From assembly GCA_963704525.1 (NCBI GenBank), contig OY969914.1, positions 890,475-954,474 on the forward strand: a DNA stretch of 64,000 nucleotides. The letters run 5' to 3'. This document shows, in pieces, positions 43,774-51,894 of this stretch; position 1 is the stretch's first letter, and each line of letters opens with the position of its first letter. Source of the DNA: an uncultured Methanobacteriaceae archaeon. GTDB lineage: Archaea; Methanobacteriota; Methanobacteria; Methanobacteriales; Methanobacteriaceae. A program made the position numbers and the translations under genes. The notes below the pieces were generated by a model. That model had not been told where the DNA came from and searched no databases. It saw only the letters and a list, made by a program, of their open reading frames with translations.

Positions 43774-44085
43774 ATCATCAATTCTAATAAAAATATACAA
43801 AAACTATTCAAACGAATTTTAATTCAAGTTTTAAAGAATTTTAATGTTTAAATACAGGATTGGGGCCATATTTTTATTTCATCTTATCATTTGCACAAGA
43901 TTTAAATAACAGTAACTCCTAGTTGATATATCTAAAATTTTTATTGATTATTCAATATTTATAACACTTTTATTCTAGTTTACACCTTTAATCTGTATAT
44001 TCACTGCAAAATAAGGTTTTTAAAACCTTAATGATTCTTCTCAATTTTAACTATTTTGAAAATGAAAATCTACGAGGTGACCAAA

Positions 44086-45456
44086 ATGAAGGTAACATTG
44101 ATTAATCCAGCTCAACTTGATTCCAAATACAAATTCATGGGTGTTGTTGCACCACCATTAGGATTAGCATATATGGCAGCAGTTTTAGAGGAAAATAATT
44201 TTGAGGTAAATATAATCGATGCATGCGCACTGGAAATGGACTGGGAATGTTTGGGTGATGAACTTAAAAGTTGTTCTCCAAGAGTGATTGCCATAACTGC
44301 ACTAACTCCAACAATTGGTAAAGCTCTTGAAACTGCAAAATTAGCTAAAAAGATTTGTCCTGATGCCATGATAGTCCTTGGAGGTTATCATCCCACATTC
44401 AATTATAAAGAAATATTAGAACAAGAATTTGTGGATGTTGTTATTATGGGGGAGGGAGAAAATACCCTCCTTGATCTTGTCAGAACAATCGATAATGGCG
44501 GCAGCCTGAACAATGTGAACGGACTTGCATTTAAAGATGTTATAACCACAGCAAGACCATTAATAGAAGACTTGGATGATTTACCATTTCCTGCAAGGCA
44601 TTTACTCCCAATTGAATATTATAAACTGCTCAATATGGAAACCAGAATGACAACAATGATTACCAGTCGAGGATGTCCAATGCAGTGTTCATTTTGCTCA
44701 TCAGCCGCCCTACATGGATCAAAATTACGATTGAGATCTATTGATAATATTTTAGACGAAATGGAGTTCCTGGTTAATGAACTTGGAATTGAAACCATAG
44801 CATTCATGGATGACACTTTCACTTTAAACAAGAGAAGAGTGCTTGAAATATGTTCCGGAATAAAAGCACGGAATATAAATGTATTATGGGGATGTACTGC
44901 TCGAGTTGATACATTAAATGCGGAGGTTTTAAAGAGTATGAGGGATGCGGGATGTATCACATTGTTTATGGGTGTTGAATCAGCAGATCAGCAGATGCTT
45001 GATGAAGTGAACAAACAAACCACCATTGAAAAAATAAGAAATGCATTCGAAGTATCTCGTAAAGAAAAAATCCGAACCATCGCATCTGTTGTTCTGGGAA
45101 TGCCCGGAGATACCCACGAAAGTATTAAAAATACTATAAATTTCGTTAAAGAGCTGAATCCATCTTATGCCATATTTTCACTTGCAACCCCCTATCCAGG
45201 GACTAAATTTTACCAGCAAACCTTTGAAAAGGACCTTATCAAAGTAAAAGATTGGTCTAAGTACACCCTAATCTCCCCAATACTAGAAACTGTTGACTGT
45301 TCGCTAGACGAACTTAGAAAGTTACAAGCAACAGCATTTAAAAAGTTTTACCTCAGACCGTCTTACCTACTTAGACAAGTTATGATGGATGGACCAATAC
45401 TTATTAAAACAATTTTTGGGGTTGTAAGGAACATTTTATTGCCTATTAAAAATTGA
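44086..45456 (+). CDS. Cobalamin-binding radical SAM protein
   Basis: PPLGLAYMAA B12-binding start, TSRGCPMQCSFC (CxxxCxxC), TPYPGT; GAGGTGA RBS before ATG 44086. Confidence 0.9.
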   Translation: MKVTLINPAQLDSKYKFMGVVAPPLGLAYMAAVLEENNFEVNIIDACALEMDWECLGDELKSCSPRVIAITALTPTIGKALETAKLAKKICPDAMIVLGGYHPTFNYKEILEQEFVDVVIMGEGENTLLDLVRTIDNGGSLNNVNGLAFKDVITTARPLIEDLDDLPFPARHLLPIEYYKLLNMETRMTTMITSRGCPMQCSFCSSAALHGSKLRLRSIDNILDEMEFLVNELGIETIAFMDDTFTLNKRRVLEICSGIKARNINVLWGCTARVDTLNAEVLKSMRDAGCITLFMGVESADQQMLDEVNKQTTIEKIRNAFEVSRKEKIRTIASVVLGMPGDTHESIKNTINFVKELNPSYAIFSLATPYPGTKFYQQTFEKDLIKVKDWSKYTLISPILETVDCSLDELRKLQATAFKKFYLRPSYLLRQVMMDGPILIKTIFGVVRNILLPIKN

Positions 45457-45653: not shown

Positions 45654-46118
45654 ATGAAAATAGCTATTATAATATATTCACAAACTGAACATACATATTC
45701 TGTGGGTTTAAAGCTTAAAGAAAAGTTATCTGATTCAGGAAACGATGTGGATATTATTAGAGTTGTTCCAATTGGTGATGTGAATCCTGGATCAAAGAAA
45801 ATTAAATTTGAAAGTGTGGTAGATACCGAAAAATATAATGGATTAATATTCGGCTCTCCTGTACATGCATTTTCCCTTGCACCTGCTATGAAATCTTATT
45901 TGGAACAAATCTCATCCCTTGATAGTAAAAATGTTGCATGTTTCGTTACCAAAGGTGTTCCATTTAATTGGACAGGTGGAACAAGGGCGATCAATATAAT
46001 GAAAAAGATTATAGGATCTAAATCTGGAAATGTTGTTGATACTTCCATAATTGTTTGGAATAAAAAACGTGACAAAACAATCCATGGTATGATAGAAAAT
46101 TTCTCGAAAAAATTTTAA
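45654..46118 (+). CDS. Flavodoxin-like protein
   Basis: IIYSQTEHT, LIFGSPVHAFS, ACFVT. Confidence 0.8.
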   Translation: MKIAIIIYSQTEHTYSVGLKLKEKLSDSGNDVDIIRVVPIGDVNPGSKKIKFESVVDTEKYNGLIFGSPVHAFSLAPAMKSYLEQISSLDSKNVACFVTKGVPFNWTGGTRAINIMKKIIGSKSGNVVDTSIIVWNKKRDKTIHGMIENFSKKF

Positions 46119-46575: not shown

Positions 46576-47739
46576 TCAGTTTCCTAAGGCGCTAATTTTT
46601 CTCAGGTTGGTTACAACCTCGACCAGAGCATCAGCAATGGCATCTACATCTTCCATTGTGTTGAAACGACCAAATGTTATTCTAAGTGATCCATGAGCCC
46701 TTTCTGGATCTCCTCCTATTCCCAGGATTACATGACTTGCCTGGAGTGAACGGCTGAAACATGCCGAACCAGTACTGACAGCAAAACCCCTCATGTCTAG
46801 GTGAAGTGTTATGGATTCACCTTCCACATAATCAAAGGAAATGTTAGCATTTTGAGGTAGTCTTTGTTTGTGATGTCCATTCAGGGTTGTTTTTGGTATT
46901 TCTGTGAGGATACGTTCCATTAAACGATCCCTCATTTCCATTAATTTGCTGGTTTCTTCTTTACTGGTTAGTTCAACAGCTTTTTTAAATCCAACAGCTC
47001 CTGGAATGTTTTCAAGCCCTCCCCTTCTATTAAATTCTTGGAAACCCCCATCGAGATATTTGTTAAATGGTGTTCCCTTTCTGATATAAAGAGCCCCTAT
47101 ACTGCTTGGTCCGTGGAGGGTATGTGCAGACAGGGTTACCAGGTCTGCAGGTATTTCTTTCACGTTAAGGGGTAGTTTTGTAAATGTATGAGTCGCATCT
47201 GTATGGAAAACAACATTTTTATCTTTACATATCTGCGCAATTGCCTTGATATCCTGGATGGTCCCAATTTCCTGGTTAGCGTGCTGTACAGATACAAGGA
47301 TAGTTTCTGGTTTGATTTGTTCCAGAACAGATTCTGGATTAACCATTCCATATTCATCCACCTCAAGATAACTTACTTCAAATCCCTGTTTTTCAAGTGT
47401 TTTAGCACTGTTTAAAACAGGAAAATCTTCTATCCTCGATAAAATTATGTGATTTCCTTTTTTTCCTTTAAGTGCCGTTGCAACACCTTTAATTGCAGTA
47501 TTGCTCGATTCTGAACTTCCAGATGTGAATATCAGTTCGTTGTCCTCAGCCCCTAAATAATTCGCTAAATAATTTCTGCTATCATCTAAAGCCTCATGAG
47601 CCTCTATTCCCATTGAGTATCCTGTTTCTGAAGTTGGAATAGCATATTTTTCGAAGAAATAAGGTTTCATAGCTTCCAATACTCTTTCATCCATCCTTGT
47701 TATGGATGAATTATCCAAGTACCTATATTTAACTTCCAT
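46576..47739 (-). CDS. IscS/NifS-like class V PLP-fold protein lacking the Schiff-base lysine
   Basis: YLDNS, FTSGSSES, HANQEIGTIQ, STGSAC (persulfide Cys), GSLRITFG; but SAHTLHGPSS where SAHKxxGPKG is expected. Confidence 0.85.
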   Translation of the reverse strand: MEVKYRYLDNSSITRMDERVLEAMKPYFFEKYAIPTSETGYSMGIEAHEALDDSRNYLANYLGAEDNELIFTSGSSESSNTAIKGVATALKGKKGNHIILSRIEDFPVLNSAKTLEKQGFEVSYLEVDEYGMVNPESVLEQIKPETILVSVQHANQEIGTIQDIKAIAQICKDKNVVFHTDATHTFTKLPLNVKEIPADLVTLSAHTLHGPSSIGALYIRKGTPFNKYLDGGFQEFNRRGGLENIPGAVGFKKAVELTSKEETSKLMEMRDRLMERILTEIPKTTLNGHHKQRLPQNANISFDYVEGESITLHLDMRGFAVSTGSACFSRSLQASHVILGIGGDPERAHGSLRITFGRFNTMEDVDAIADALVEVVTNLRKISALGN

Positions 47740-47839
47740 TTATATCCCCCTGACATTTTTTCACATTTTCTTTAACAATAATATTAGAAACTTGTTTTTC
47801 TTTTTGCAGAGATTTGCATCGTATGAAAGTGCATTTGGT

Positions 47840-48280
47840 TCATATGAAAAGTGTGATTTTGGAATTTCTAGCTTCATTAACGTAGGTTCCAACTGCACCA
47901 TATTCATCTATGAGTTCCTGGTTCAAGTCTTCCTTTGAAACTCCCATTATCTCCATGGTCATTTCACATGCTATGACCTTACCTCCAAGCTCTTTAAAAT
48001 CTTTTATTAATCTTTCGAGGGAGGCTACATTGGCTTTTTTCATCCTGCGATTTATCATCCATTTTCCAAGGCCTAAAAAGTGCATCTTGGATAGCGGGCC
48101 CTTGTCCAAACCTCCCTTTTGAAGTCTTTGAAGACCCCAAAATGTGAAGAATAGTGATGCTTCCATTCCCATTGACAAAGCCCCGTTTGAAACTATTAGC
48201 GCACTATATATCTTGTCCATATCTCCACTGTGAACAATTATGGTTGATTTATCTGCTTTTATTGTTTCTTCAACCATCAA
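47840..48280 (-). CDS. DsrE/DsrE2-like sulfur-relay protein
   Basis: ASLFFTFWGL, KVIACEMTMEIMG, GAVGTYV. Confidence 0.85.
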   Translation of the reverse strand: MMVEETIKADKSTIIVHSGDMDKIYSALIVSNGALSMGMEASLFFTFWGLQRLQKGGLDKGPLSKMHFLGLGKWMINRRMKKANVASLERLIKDFKELGGKVIACEMTMEIMGVSKEDLNQELIDEYGAVGTYVNEARNSKITLFI

Positions 48281-48285
48281 ATCAC

Positions 48286-48507
48286 CTACTTACGTATTTT
48301 AATCTTCCAGATACCATCTTTTTCCTGGACATCCAGAAGTTCAGAACCCAGAGATTCTACTGCCATTGGAATTTCCTTCTTAGATGCAGGGTGGGTTCCT
48401 TCCATCACTATTATTTCTCCTTTAGAAACATTTCTGAGTGCTTTTCTCATTTCTACTAGGGGAACCGGGCATGTTTCTCCCTTAACATCTATTTTGATTT
48501 CTTCCAT
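48286..48507 (-). CDS. TusA/SirA-family sulfurtransferase
   Basis: IDVKGETCPVPL (CPxP), 73 aa. Confidence 0.88.
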   Translation of the reverse strand: MEEIKIDVKGETCPVPLVEMRKALRNVSKGEIIVMEGTHPASKKEIPMAVESLGSELLDVQEKDGIWKIKIRK

Positions 48508-48735
48508 TAAATCACCTCAAATATTCAGCGAAATTAACTTTATTTAACCATATATTTGTCCTTGAATCAACATAAAATTTTAGTATTTTCCAGATTTTTA
48601 TAACCCTATTACCTAATTAAAATAGTATAACCTTGTTATATTCATTTGATGATGATACATAAATTCTGAGATTCATCTTTCAAGAATTGAAATCTATTTA
48701 AGCCCATGATAGAAAATTTTAATGTGGTGATCATA

Positions 48736-49413
48736 ATGAAAACTGTAGTTTTATCCTATCCCATAAAAAACAACTCCCCACATTACATAGGTACAACAAA
48801 ACCTTCTCTGGAAGCTTTAACTCAGATAGAAAATGGTGATGATTACAACACCTACAAGATAACAGTAGGAAACCACACTGGAACCCATATTGACGCTCCA
48901 AAACATTTCATTGACACAGGAAAATCTATAAGCGATTACCTCCCTCAAGATCTCAGCTTTAAAAATCCCAAGATAATCAACTGTCCAAAAAACCCTTATG
49001 AACTCATCGAAATTGAAGATATTCATCATTCAGACTTGAAGGAATGTGAATGCTTACTAATTAAAACAGAATTTGGAAAGTACAGAGAGTCTGATCTTCA
49101 AAAATATCTCACTGAAAGCCCTGGAATATCTGTTAATACAGTTGAATGGATCAGGAAAAACCATCCACAAATACGATGCATCGGAATTGACACCATCTCC
49201 ATATCAAGGTATAATGACGAAGAAAATGCTAAAAAAACACATATCACCGGTTTCAAAACCAGTAACAAATATGGTGAACCACTCCTGTTCATCGAAGACA
49301 TGAACATGGATAAATTAAACTACCAACAAAAATTGAATGAAATTCTCGTAGTGCCATGGCAGATAGTTGGAGTTGACAGTGCACCATGTATTGTTATTGC
49401 TGATTTGAAATAG
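48736..49413 (+). CDS. Cyclase family (kynurenine formamidase-like) metal hydrolase
   Basis: NHTGTHIDAPKHF, GIDTIS, IEDM, DSAPC; GGTGA RBS before ATG 48736. Confidence 0.85.
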   Translation: MKTVVLSYPIKNNSPHYIGTTKPSLEALTQIENGDDYNTYKITVGNHTGTHIDAPKHFIDTGKSISDYLPQDLSFKNPKIINCPKNPYELIEIEDIHHSDLKECECLLIKTEFGKYRESDLQKYLTESPGISVNTVEWIRKNHPQIRCIGIDTISISRYNDEENAKKTHITGFKTSNKYGEPLLFIEDMNMDKLNYQQKLNEILVVPWQIVGVDSAPCIVIADLK

Positions 49414-49668: not shown

Positions 49669-51894
49669 TTGATATTTTTTGGACTTGTTTTAATTGGTTT
49701 AGTAGTTGTTTTTTCGTATGGTATGGATAATGTTTCGGCAGTTAGTCCAATCTATGTTAGCACCCATGGTAACAACAGTTGGAATGGTTTGCATTCTACA
49801 CACATCCAAGGTACTTTATACGGGCCTAAAGCTACAATAAAAAATGCCACTGGTACCATAAAATCTGGCGGAGCATTACATATAGCCAGTGGAATCTACA
49901 AAGAAAACAACATCACCATAAATAAGAACATGTACATCATTGGTGCAAAGCAGAGTAACACTATAATAAACGGAAACAACAAGGGACCGATATTCCACAT
50001 CACACACAATGTTGTAAAAGTATCTATCCACAACCTTACAATCATTAACGCAAAGACAACTAACTATGCTGCAATCGAAAATGGGGGATTTTGTAATTTG
50101 TATATAGATAGGTGTAGCTTCACTAACAACACTGGTAGAGCAATCTTCAATGGTGGTGAGGGGGGTAATGTGATTGTAAAAGATACAATATTCAGTAAAA
50201 ACACTGCTGCAATCTACAATTATGTTGATAATACGATGCGCCTGACTAACTGTACTTTCACCAACAACAATGGAAACAAGGGAGATTATGTAATCTCTAA
50301 TGGTGGTGTTCTGTATATAGATAGGTGCAAATTCAACAACAATCCTACTGTCACAATATCCAACTATTTCGGCGCGTCAATAATTGTATCCCGGAGCATC
50401 TTCACCAACAACACTTGTGCTATCGAAAGCGATGGTGGTTTAAAAGTAACCGGCTGTATATTTACCAAAAACACCAAAGGAGCCATCTGGAATGATCGTG
50501 TGGCAACTGTAACTAGCAGCAAATTCGTAGGTAACAATGCAGTCAATGGTGGTGCAATCAGAAACGATGGTGAAGTTGCTTTAACAGTTACTAACAGCAC
50601 CTTCACAAACAACACCGCAACAGAAAATGGAGGTGCCATTCACAGTATTTATGATTCTAAATTGAAAGTGAGTAACTGTACTTTCATCAATAACATCGCA
50701 AAAGAAAATGGAGGTGCCATTTACAGTGGTAGTGAAGTAATTGATTTAAATGTGACTAGTTGTAATTTCAACAATAACACTGCAAACGATGTGGGCGGTG
50801 CCATATACACCTACAGTGGTACTGTAAATTTTAATCGATTAATTGGAGATAAAAACTACGAACTCTACAATAACGGCACTAATTCTTTGGATGCTAAATA
50901 TAATTGGTGGGGTTCAAATAACCCTGATTTCAGCAACCTGGTTTCAGGAGTTGTTAATACCAATCCGTGGATTGTATTAACCATCAATGCAAACCCTACA
51001 ACAATCAATAATGGTGGAAATTCAGCCATCATTGCGGGTTTACTTCGTGATTCCAATGGTGCGTACCACAGCCCATTATTAACTCATTTGCCCGATGGTA
51101 TACCAGTAAGCTTTTCAAGTGATGGTAAAGGAAGTGTAAACCCCACAGCACCAGTTAATGGTATGGTGGCTGGTAAAGCTACAACTACATTCACAGCGGG
51201 TATTCCAGGCATCTCTTCAATTGCAGCAACAGTTGACAGTCAGACAGTAACATCACAAGTAAATATCTTACCTGTAGCATTAGTGACTAGTAGCGATCCT
51301 ATTAACAATGCATCTAACGTTGCTATAAATAAGATTATCAAGATCTACTTCAACCAACCAATCAAATTCTCAAACAACATATGGATAGAACTCCACAGAA
51401 CAGCCACAGGACCAGCAAAATCATTTAAGATCTCCATCAGCGATAATGTATTATCCTTAACTACTAGTTATCCCTTAGCAATTGGAACTAAATACACTGT
51501 GATCATACACTCAAAAAGTATAACAGACATGATGGGGAATGCTTTAGCAGCACCATATACAACCAGATTCACAACATCATTACCACCAGTCGTGACAAGC
51601 ACAAGTCCATTAAACAATGCTTTTAATGTGGCGGTGAATAAAGTGATACAAATCAACTTCAGCAAAGCCATTCAACTCGGTGCAAACCCGTGGATTGAAC
51701 TTAAAAATCAGTACGGACAAGCCAAACCATTCAAAACCAGTATAAATGGTAGTACACTGAATATAACAACCGACGCAACATTTGCAAGGGGAACAACTTA
51801 CACAGTCATACTCCATTCAAACAGCGTCACAAGCACAGGTGGAGCAGGACTAGCAGCACCATACACAACACGATTCACAACAACAACTGCCTAA
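49669..51894 (+). CDS. Adhesin-like surface protein (beta-helix GGAI/FxxN repeats, Ig-like domains, two Big_5 domains)
   Basis: Repeats FTNNTATENGGAIH / FINNIAKENGGAIY, NWWGSNNP, and two C-terminal SDP/TSP..IKIYFNQPI-type domains. True start may be upstream (49621/49624). Confidence 0.85.
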   Translation: MIFFGLVLIGLVVVFSYGMDNVSAVSPIYVSTHGNNSWNGLHSTHIQGTLYGPKATIKNATGTIKSGGALHIASGIYKENNITINKNMYIIGAKQSNTIINGNNKGPIFHITHNVVKVSIHNLTIINAKTTNYAAIENGGFCNLYIDRCSFTNNTGRAIFNGGEGGNVIVKDTIFSKNTAAIYNYVDNTMRLTNCTFTNNNGNKGDYVISNGGVLYIDRCKFNNNPTVTISNYFGASIIVSRSIFTNNTCAIESDGGLKVTGCIFTKNTKGAIWNDRVATVTSSKFVGNNAVNGGAIRNDGEVALTVTNSTFTNNTATENGGAIHSIYDSKLKVSNCTFINNIAKENGGAIYSGSEVIDLNVTSCNFNNNTANDVGGAIYTYSGTVNFNRLIGDKNYELYNNGTNSLDAKYNWWGSNNPDFSNLVSGVVNTNPWIVLTINANPTTINNGGNSAIIAGLLRDSNGAYHSPLLTHLPDGIPVSFSSDGKGSVNPTAPVNGMVAGKATTTFTAGIPGISSIAATVDSQTVTSQVNILPVALVTSSDPINNASNVAINKIIKIYFNQPIKFSNNIWIELHRTATGPAKSFKISISDNVLSLTTSYPLAIGTKYTVIIHSKSITDMMGNALAAPYTTRFTTSLPPVVTSTSPLNNAFNVAVNKVIQINFSKAIQLGANPWIELKNQYGQAKPFKTSINGSTLNITTDATFARGTTYTVILHSNSVTSTGGAGLAAPYTTRFTTTTA

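Follow-up and report, generated by a model that had tools for sequence, protein, structure and literature searches.

A lysine-less IscS1 protein encoded with TusA and DsrE carriers and without its own IscU scaffold gene in a Methanobacterium genome

The window analysed here is a stretch of 64,000 nucleotides from an uncultured archaeon of the Methanobacteriaceae (assembly GCA_963704525.1, contig OY969914.1, positions 890,475 to 954,474), a Methanobacterium whose genome comprises 2.39 Mb in one contig. It contains a cassette of tusA, dsrE, and iscS1 genes, of which the last encodes a protein with the fold of the IscS/NifS cysteine desulfurases that lacks the lysine binding the cofactor pyridoxal phosphate (PLP). 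The scaffold-less form of this cassette, without the gene for an IscU-type scaffold of iron-sulfur (Fe-S) cluster assembly, is the unusual feature of the window. Judged from sequence, the three proteins could form a PLP-independent relay that hands persulfide sulfur from TusA and DsrE to Cys327 of IscS1 and further to an Fe-S scaffold, a reading to which we give about an even chance. The genes and codons are located as follows (positions in the window):

46576-47739, minus strand: iscS1, lysine-less protein of the type I IscS/NifS fold, 387 residues, PF00266 (Aminotran_5) at 2e-66
48286-48507, minus strand: putative tusA-like sulfur carrier gene, 73 residues, Cys13 in TCPVPLVE, PF01206 at 1.4e-19
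47840-48280, minus strand: putative DsrE2B-like sulfur carrier gene, 146 residues, Cys105 in IACEMTME, PF13686 at 1.6e-35
47740-47839, minus strand: spacer of 100 nucleotides between dsrE and iscS1 with the ribosome-binding site GGGGGA
47119-47121, minus strand: codon ACC for Thr207 at the position of the Schiff-base Lys206
47425-47427, minus strand: codon GAT for Asp105 at the position of the PLP-stacking His104
47188-47190, minus strand: codon CAT for His184 at the position of Gln183
47272-47274, minus strand: codon CAG for Gln156 at the position of Asn155
46759-46761, minus strand: codon TGT for Cys327, the mobile-loop cysteine corresponding to Cys328 of Escherichia coli

The open reading frame (ORF) of iscS1 contains no internal stops and its frame is intact. 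The residues were mapped by aligning the window IscS1 to the annotated IscS of E. coli MG1655. Thr207 is found within SAHTLHGPSS (GGT on the plus strand, ACC on the coding strand), the motif H-x-D-A-x-Q reads HTDATHT, and STGSAC of the mobile loop is kept. The original prediction had built on the Thr codon, on DATH in place of DAxQ, and on the retained STGSAC in an intact frame, and all of these were confirmed on the sequence. However, at least six positions of the PLP site are altered compared to the two that it had listed. The changes with respect to E. coli IscS are H104 to D105, K105 to F106, N155 to Q156, Q183 to H184, K206 to T207, T243 to L242, and D79 to S79, while D180, S203, H205, C328 (C327 in the window), and R354 are kept. 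All desulfurase models of NCBIfam score IscS1 below their trusted cut-offs (e.g. NifS with 437.6 bits compared to 530.75). In E. coli IscS, each of the single mutations H104Q, Q183E, and K206A leads to the loss of desulfurase activity, and some PLP binding persists in K206A (PMC9978102). Because K206T, H104D, and Q183H are all present in the window protein and the matching single E. coli mutants are inactive, its PLP chemistry is, to judge from these residues, disabled and persulfides should not be formed from cysteine. The fold-type I, class V aminotransferase fold of IscS1 is intact and the chemistry alone is altered. An AlphaFold2 model built from 36 sequences has a mean predicted local distance difference test score (pLDDT) of 93 and a predicted template modelling score of 0.92, and matches human NFS1, Archaeoglobus fulgidus IscS, and E. 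coli IscS with template modelling scores of 0.91-0.96 and root-mean-square deviations of 1.2-1.7 Å. The sole segment of the model with a pLDDT below 50 comprises residues 326-330, and the Cys327 loop is thus predicted to be mobile.

The altered residues are shared by all of the top 120 homologues in the database, which are at least 75% identical, have S-[AG]-H-T at the lysine site, and keep the other changes. Scanning species-representative genomes resulted in 80 loci with 64-83% identity to the window IscS1, spanning Methanobacteriaceae, Methanofastidiosum, Methanosarcina, Altiarchaeales, Dehalococcoidia, Anaerolineae, Syntrophales, Atribacterota, and Gaiellales, and a later locus sample added members from Thermoplasmatota. 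The lysine is absent from all 76 members of the IscS1 family, which come from about ten phyla. The respective column contains threonine in 93% and leucine, asparagine, or serine in the rest of the family, compared to lysine in 100% of the 118 Lys-bearing relatives. The threonine is therefore conserved in orthologues having the same neighbours, and orthologues with lysine, which would speak against the original prediction, were looked for but are not present among the family members. D105, Q152, Q156, H184, A248, and F328 are found in 100% of the 76 members, and F106 and T183 in 99%, while the canonical relatives have H, K/H, M, N, V, Q, I, and S/T in columns 105, 106, 152, 156, 183, 184, 248, and 328, respectively. 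The separation is almost complete in columns 105 (Asp in 100% of the family versus His in 99% of the canonical relatives), 156 (Gln in 100% versus Asn in 97%), and 184 (His in 100% versus Gln in 97%). C327 in STGSAC is invariant across the family, and column 242 is variable (L, V, Q, S, A, T, P, or M). The pairwise ratio of nonsynonymous to synonymous substitution rates (dN/dS) of iscS1 is 0.083 in the iscU-less clade of the window and 0.096 in the iscU-linked members. Because the new residues are invariant and dN/dS is low, the site has been remodelled and has not decayed; it was rebuilt and then frozen.

About 70 of the 80 loci have tusA and dsrE immediately upstream of iscS1. In 50 of the 80, iscS1 is directly followed by a gene for an IscU of 211 residues with three Cys ligands, an LPPIK motif, and a fused DUF59-like C-terminal domain (IscU-DUF59). 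At the canonical iscS loci of the Methanobacteriales, tusA is absent from the 4-kb flanks in all of 20 cases, and an ordinary iscU of 127-134 residues is adjacent in 14 of these. Among 80 loci of mixed affiliation, which were retrieved with the sister protein P0125 and scanned for neighbours within 2.5 kb, tusA/dsrE are present in 13 of the 16 loci of IscS1 and its sister group but in only one of the 64 others (Fisher p = 2e-11). TusA and DsrE are thus dedicated and co-conserved partners of IscS1. The original prediction had already placed two persulfide-carrier genes ahead of iscS, in agreement with the matches of TusA to PF01206 and of DsrE to PF13686. Its proposal of a non-canonical relay working with TusA and DsrE was right in outline, considering the co-conserved partners and the purifying selection, but the fourth gene of most lineages, IscU-DUF59, is absent from the window and could not be known from its letters. 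The sister group of IscS1 retains the lysine and is known from metagenome-assembled genomes (MAGs) of Cloacimonadota, Acetothermia, Fraserbacteria, WOR-3, and Aerophobetes (loci L142-L157). In the Shimodaira-Hasegawa-like approximate likelihood ratio test its joint clade with IscS1 is supported by a value of 85 and the wider clade by 97. These proteins keep Lys206 and His104, have Gln156 and mostly leucine at the position of Gln183 (signature H-x-Q-L-K, as in Cloacimonadota), and their genes are arranged in the order iscS - iscU (about 215 residues) - tusA - (dsrE). Because the Lys-bearing proteins are accompanied by the same genes, the association with TusA/DsrE and IscU-DUF59 predates the loss of the lysine.

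A protein of this family has been described in Methanosarcina acetivorans, which has three iscSU pairs (Deere et al. 2020, PMC7585200) and whose IscS1 (MA0808, 42.2 kDa, 318-STGSACFS-325) does not contain the PLP-binding residues including the lysine (PMC7585200). The orthologous locus of Methanosarcina sp. T3 has the gene order HIT - tusA - dsrE - iscS1 - iscU1 and matches the published figures for IscS1 (318-STGSACFS-325, 42.2 kDa) and IscU1 (C45/C72/C116, 24.2 kDa). Because this locus reproduces the published numbers and encodes an IscS1 with 66.6% identity to that of the window, the window protein is an orthologue of M. acetivorans IscS1. It carries the signature D105-F106, Q156, H184, T207, and STGSACF and groups inside the IscS1 clade with 99-100% support. 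The T3 locus has the PLP-site changes and the upstream tusA and dsrE genes in common with the window, but also the IscU1-DUF59 gene that is missing in the window clade. For the isc1 locus of M. acetivorans (MA0807 for IscU1 and MA0808 for IscS1), the neighbouring genes are labelled "unknown function" in the respective paper (PMC7585200). The IscS1 cassette was thus noted in the literature in 2020 but is uncharacterised. It is not described in the literature treating TusA, DsrE, and IscU together, as far as this could be searched largely outside subscription journals.

The best sequence match to IscS1 in the PDB (6e-99) is the IscS of the IscS2-IscU pair of A. fulgidus (AF0564/AF0565; PDB 4EB5, 4EB7, 4HVK, 4R5F). 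Like the window protein, A. fulgidus IscS has the IscS fold without the Schiff-base lysine, and it does not have desulfurase activity (PMC7585200, PMC8918507). To this extent the precedent named in the original prediction holds, but it does not represent the lineage of the window. In both trees (FastTree with 159 rows and IQ-TREE with 79 rows) A. fulgidus IscS belongs to a separate Lys-less clade on the canonical side with 97-98% support. A common lineage can therefore be ruled out and the losses of the lysine were independent. Among the 150 nearest cluster representatives the lysine has been lost at least four times. In A. fulgidus IscS the lysine is replaced by aspartate, His104 is kept, and pyridoxamine phosphate (PMP) is bound (PMC8918507), whereas His104, Asn155, and Gln183 are also changed in the window protein. 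The loop cysteine of A. fulgidus IscS is a ligand of the [2Fe-2S] cluster on IscU (PMC13066941, PMC8918507). A. fulgidus IscS is accordingly an analogue of IscS1, and a missing lysine alone does not prove that the cofactor is missing.

Gene loss in the clade of the window affects the scaffold. There is no iscU following iscS1 in the window or in about 25 related Methanobacteriaceae loci. In the FastTree phylogeny the iscU-less loci form one subclade with the iscU-bearing Methanobacteriaceae lineage L026 just outside, and one loss of iscU is enough to explain this pattern. The host genome encodes a single canonical IscU of 127 residues (genome positions 384667-385029), far from the cassette. 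With 78-97% identity to the IscU adjoining canonical IscS in relatives, this lone IscU is the housekeeping copy. A relocated IscU1 is ruled out by the same identity values and by the missing DUF59 domain. The host genome also encodes a canonical NifS/IscS (SSHKLYGPKG; 367064-368203; loci L002 and L134) and a type II SufS/CsdA-like desulfurase with intact lysine (PGHKGLLGP; 1720392-1721501; L001), as well as a SufB-like protein and a stand-alone DUF59 protein. The canonical iscS and iscU (L120) are 17 kb apart in this genus, while they abut in 14 of 20 other Methanobacteriales. IscS1 is present in 31 of 151 good Methanobacteriales genomes (at least 66% identity, while canonical copies have at most 49%), and nearly all of the 31 genomes also hold a canonical copy. 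No IscS-like gene other than that of IscS1 was found in two MAGs of Methanofastidiosum and one of Atribacterota, although such an absence is provisional in MAGs. Of about 200 positions of IscS1 conserved in the family, only 10 have changed since iscU was lost. Because so few positions changed and selection is still strong, the triad appears to work with no scaffold gene in cis.

The E. coli complex of IscS and TusA (PDB 3LVJ) combines the same two folds as are encoded in the window. TusA is bound there on helix alpha-2 of IscS via W45, E49, D52, and R55, with R27 and R31 of TusA forming salt bridges, and binding is abolished by W45R, E49A, and D52A/R/Y/M (PMC2854127). The window IscS1 has I45, E49, D52, and R55 at the docking positions, so that E49, D52, and R55 are conserved together with Arg27 of TusA, which corresponds to R21. 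Position 49 is acidic in 100% and position 52 in 95% of the IscS1 family, while only 24% of the canonical relatives have glutamate at position 49. On the side of TusA, R21 is found in at least 95% of the cassette proteins, and R25 (R31 in E. coli) is present in the window. The basic patch for CyaY, IscX, and ThiI (R220, R223, R225, R237, R340) is absent from the window IscS1. These residues support a docking of TusA on IscS1 like that in E. coli. However, in E. coli the IscS partner has desulfurase activity and donates sulfur to TusA, whereas IscS1 is predicted to be unable to generate sulfur.

The window TusA scores 70.1 bits with PF01206 (cut-off 28.6) and contains the CPxP cysteine. Of 75 cassette loci, 74 have this residue, Cys13, and the conservation of R21/K22 is at least 95%. 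Its best relatives in the PDB are YeeD/TsuB and TM0983. A selenium-related (YedF-like) identity of TusA was rejected, as there are only weak sub-threshold matches in NCBIfam and the paper on selenium in M. maripaludis concerns other Tus genes. For DsrE, 73 of 74 cassette loci have Cys105. The best PDB match of the window DsrE is 2QS7, the DsrE2B of S. solfataricus (8e-21, end-to-end alignment with the cysteine aligned). The DsrE2 model of NCBIfam scores it with 66 compared to a cut-off of 210, and the label DsrE2B is thus a putative one taken from the PDB match. A DsrE2B-type protein (PDB 2QS7) and TusA are also combined in the DsrE3A-DsrE2B-TusA system of the Sulfolobales as in M. cuprina (PMC4175335), but this system adjoins sHdr sulfur-oxidation genes and has no IscS partner (Liu et al. 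2014, PMC4175335). A second pair of TusA and DsrE2-type domains is encoded in the host genome by one fused ORF of 278 residues on the minus strand (613048-613884, which is L121 4048-4884). It contains a CPGP cysteine and a YVCELSAE cysteine and overlaps by 16 nucleotides with an upstream ORF of 238 residues without an assigned family. The fused protein is a separate sulfur-carrier system of the same genome. In addition, relatives of genus g10 without IscS1 (L124 45-5544, L128) encode a DsrE that is 73% identical to that of the window, and the genes downstream of it are those for an O-acetylhomoserine sulfhydrylase-like protein and a homoserine O-acetyltransferase-CBS protein as well as canonical iscS and iscU. 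These neighbours hint at such carriers also being located beside homocysteine/methionine sulfur assimilation.

In the relay that we propose, TusA (Cys13) and the DsrE2B-like protein (Cys105) would carry sulfane sulfur as persulfides, which could be derived from polysulfide or sulfide or be passed on from the canonical desulfurases. IscS1 would be a dimeric IscS-fold protein that makes no persulfide from cysteine. TusA would dock on its helix alpha-2 in the E. coli manner and exchange the persulfide with the mobile Cys327, from which the sulfur would be given to an IscU-type Fe-S scaffold. IscS1 may also provide the fourth cluster ligand like A. fulgidus IscS. The acceptor would be the co-encoded IscU-DUF59 in most lineages, and the housekeeping IscU or another acceptor in the Methanobacterium subclade. 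From gene content, residue changes, fold, conservation, selection, synteny, and phylogeny, which are shown here, we infer these biochemical steps, the origin of the sulfur, and the direction in which it is passed on. Several observations weigh against such a relay. The scaffold gene is unlinked in the host genome, so that the connection to Fe-S clusters rests on other lineages. The genome contains two further desulfurases, and independence from cysteine is not required. The retained D180, S203, H205, and R354 leave several contacts to cofactor and substrate, and by analogy to A. fulgidus IscS, which binds PMP without the lysine, a bound cofactor in IscS1 may be conceivable. The partnership being older than the loss of the lysine, TusA and DsrE are not merely substitutes for a lost desulfurase activity, and the ancestral direction of the sulfur may have been from IscS to TusA. 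DsrE2B of M. cuprina did not react with the six sulfur compounds tested (PMC4175335). M. acetivorans IscS1 was insoluble when produced recombinantly and was not studied further, and in the proteome of this species only IscS2/IscU2 are consistently seen and IscS1 rarely (PMC7585200).

It could be imagined that IscS1 is just a structural partner of IscU, offering a platform and a cysteine ligand, that free sulfide is used, and that TusA and DsrE buffer or regulate sulfane sulfur or have a similar role. A. fulgidus IscS is a precedent for a platform, the habitats are sulfidic, and M. cuprina DsrE2B is unreactive in vitro. However, the tight co-conservation of TusA and DsrE and the conserved docking residues on IscS1 speak against this, and in the clade of the window the dedicated IscU is gone while IscS1, TusA, and DsrE remain under strong selection, which makes this explanation rather unlikely. 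The iscU-less triad could also be a Tus-like thiolation relay and serve tRNA 2-thiouridine (s2U), molybdopterin/thio-cofactors, or homocysteine sulfur instead of Fe-S assembly. A relay of this type is known from E. coli (IscS-TusA-TusBCD, the last being homologous to DsrEFH), and both the unlinked scaffold gene and the 73%-identical DsrE of the g10 relatives upstream of metY-metX-iscS-iscU would fit. Nevertheless, we regard this as improbable, because the few positions changed after the loss of iscU do not point to a new function and genes for thiolation enzymes are not found nearby.

The rebuilt pocket of IscS1 might bind PLP/PMP non-covalently, or another ligand or a metal, and catalyse a different reaction. 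D180, S203, H205, and R354 are retained, the new residues D105, Q156, and H184 do not vary, T207 is conserved in 93%, A. fulgidus IscS holds PMP without the lysine, and E. coli K206A binds some PLP. On the other hand, the ring-stacking histidine, the glutamine partner of O3', and the trans phosphate contact Thr243 are lost, position 242 is variable, and there is no known PLP chemistry without a general base at the lysine site. Thus, a reaction of this kind seems quite improbable. Finally, a decaying paralogue or an assembly or sequencing error could be considered, in view of the two other intact desulfurases of the genome. A pseudogene or drift is ruled out by the dN/dS of about 0.08 and the invariant new residues, and a sequencing error or strain-specific change by the Lys-less homologues (120 of 120 and the whole family). 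Considering also the 64-83% identity across phyla, the intact frame, and the pLDDT of 93, decay or error is extremely unlikely. Going beyond the relay preferred here, IscS1 proteins could, instead of being dead desulfurases, be the hub of a distinct and widespread route by which sulfur enters Fe-S assembly in strict anaerobes, with sulfane sulfur supplied via TusA/DsrE in place of cysteine. Asp105, Asp181, His184, and His206, which are invariant in the rebuilt PLP pocket beside the mobile Cys327, could then form a new site for a ligand or a metal, perhaps iron, and the three-gene form of Methanobacterium would indicate that the hub is able to serve a scaffold encoded elsewhere. This is a tentative suggestion, possible but on the whole doubtful.

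Both tusA and dsrE are located upstream of iscS1 on the same strand, with a gap of only 5 nucleotides between them and a GAGGTGA ribosome-binding site ahead of the ATG of tusA. The spacers between dsrE and iscS of the relatives have 42-73 nucleotides and contain a GGAGG-type site in every case. Conserved structures were not seen in the dsrE-iscS1 spacers of relatives, and the Rfam search for regulatory RNAs in the spacers gave only a chance-level match. Scanning for bacterial-type promoters and terminators resulted in a signal at the level of shuffled sequences, but such models are ill-suited to archaea. Further sulfur or Fe-S genes were not found within about 10 kb of the cassette. A gene for a PF04199 "putative cyclase"/arylformamidase-like protein (48706-49413, plus strand) is divergent from tusA. 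It adjoins the cassette on either side in 17 Methanobacteriaceae loci, and a functional link is not evident. A B12-binding radical SAM protein (44056-45456, plus strand), which is BchE/HpnJ-like but reaches none of the NCBIfam cut-offs, and a small flavodoxin-like protein (45654-46118, plus strand) are encoded 0.5-2.5 kb downstream of iscS1 on the opposite strand, and a conserved linkage to the cassette was not seen. The gene at 49669-51894 (plus strand) encodes a secreted protein of 741 residues with Asn/Thr-rich parallel beta-helix-like repeats and two C-terminal Ig-like repeats, which is of the adhesin-like type typical for Methanobacteriales.

Methanogens use more Fe-S proteins than most organisms (PMC13066941, PMC8918507). 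How sulfur enters the Fe-S clusters of strict anaerobes is an open question, chiefly in methanogens and in cases without an active cysteine desulfurase (PMC13066941, PMC8918507), and the source of the sulfur is also unresolved for A. fulgidus IscS. The IscS1 family is a testable candidate for this entry, given that two dedicated persulfide carriers are encoded with a Lys-less IscS in many phyla. The Lys-bearing sister group with the same partners would, as suggested by its residues, offer a natural pair of active and inactive proteins for experiments. In the form found in the window, the unit has been maintained under strong selection despite the loss of its scaffold gene.

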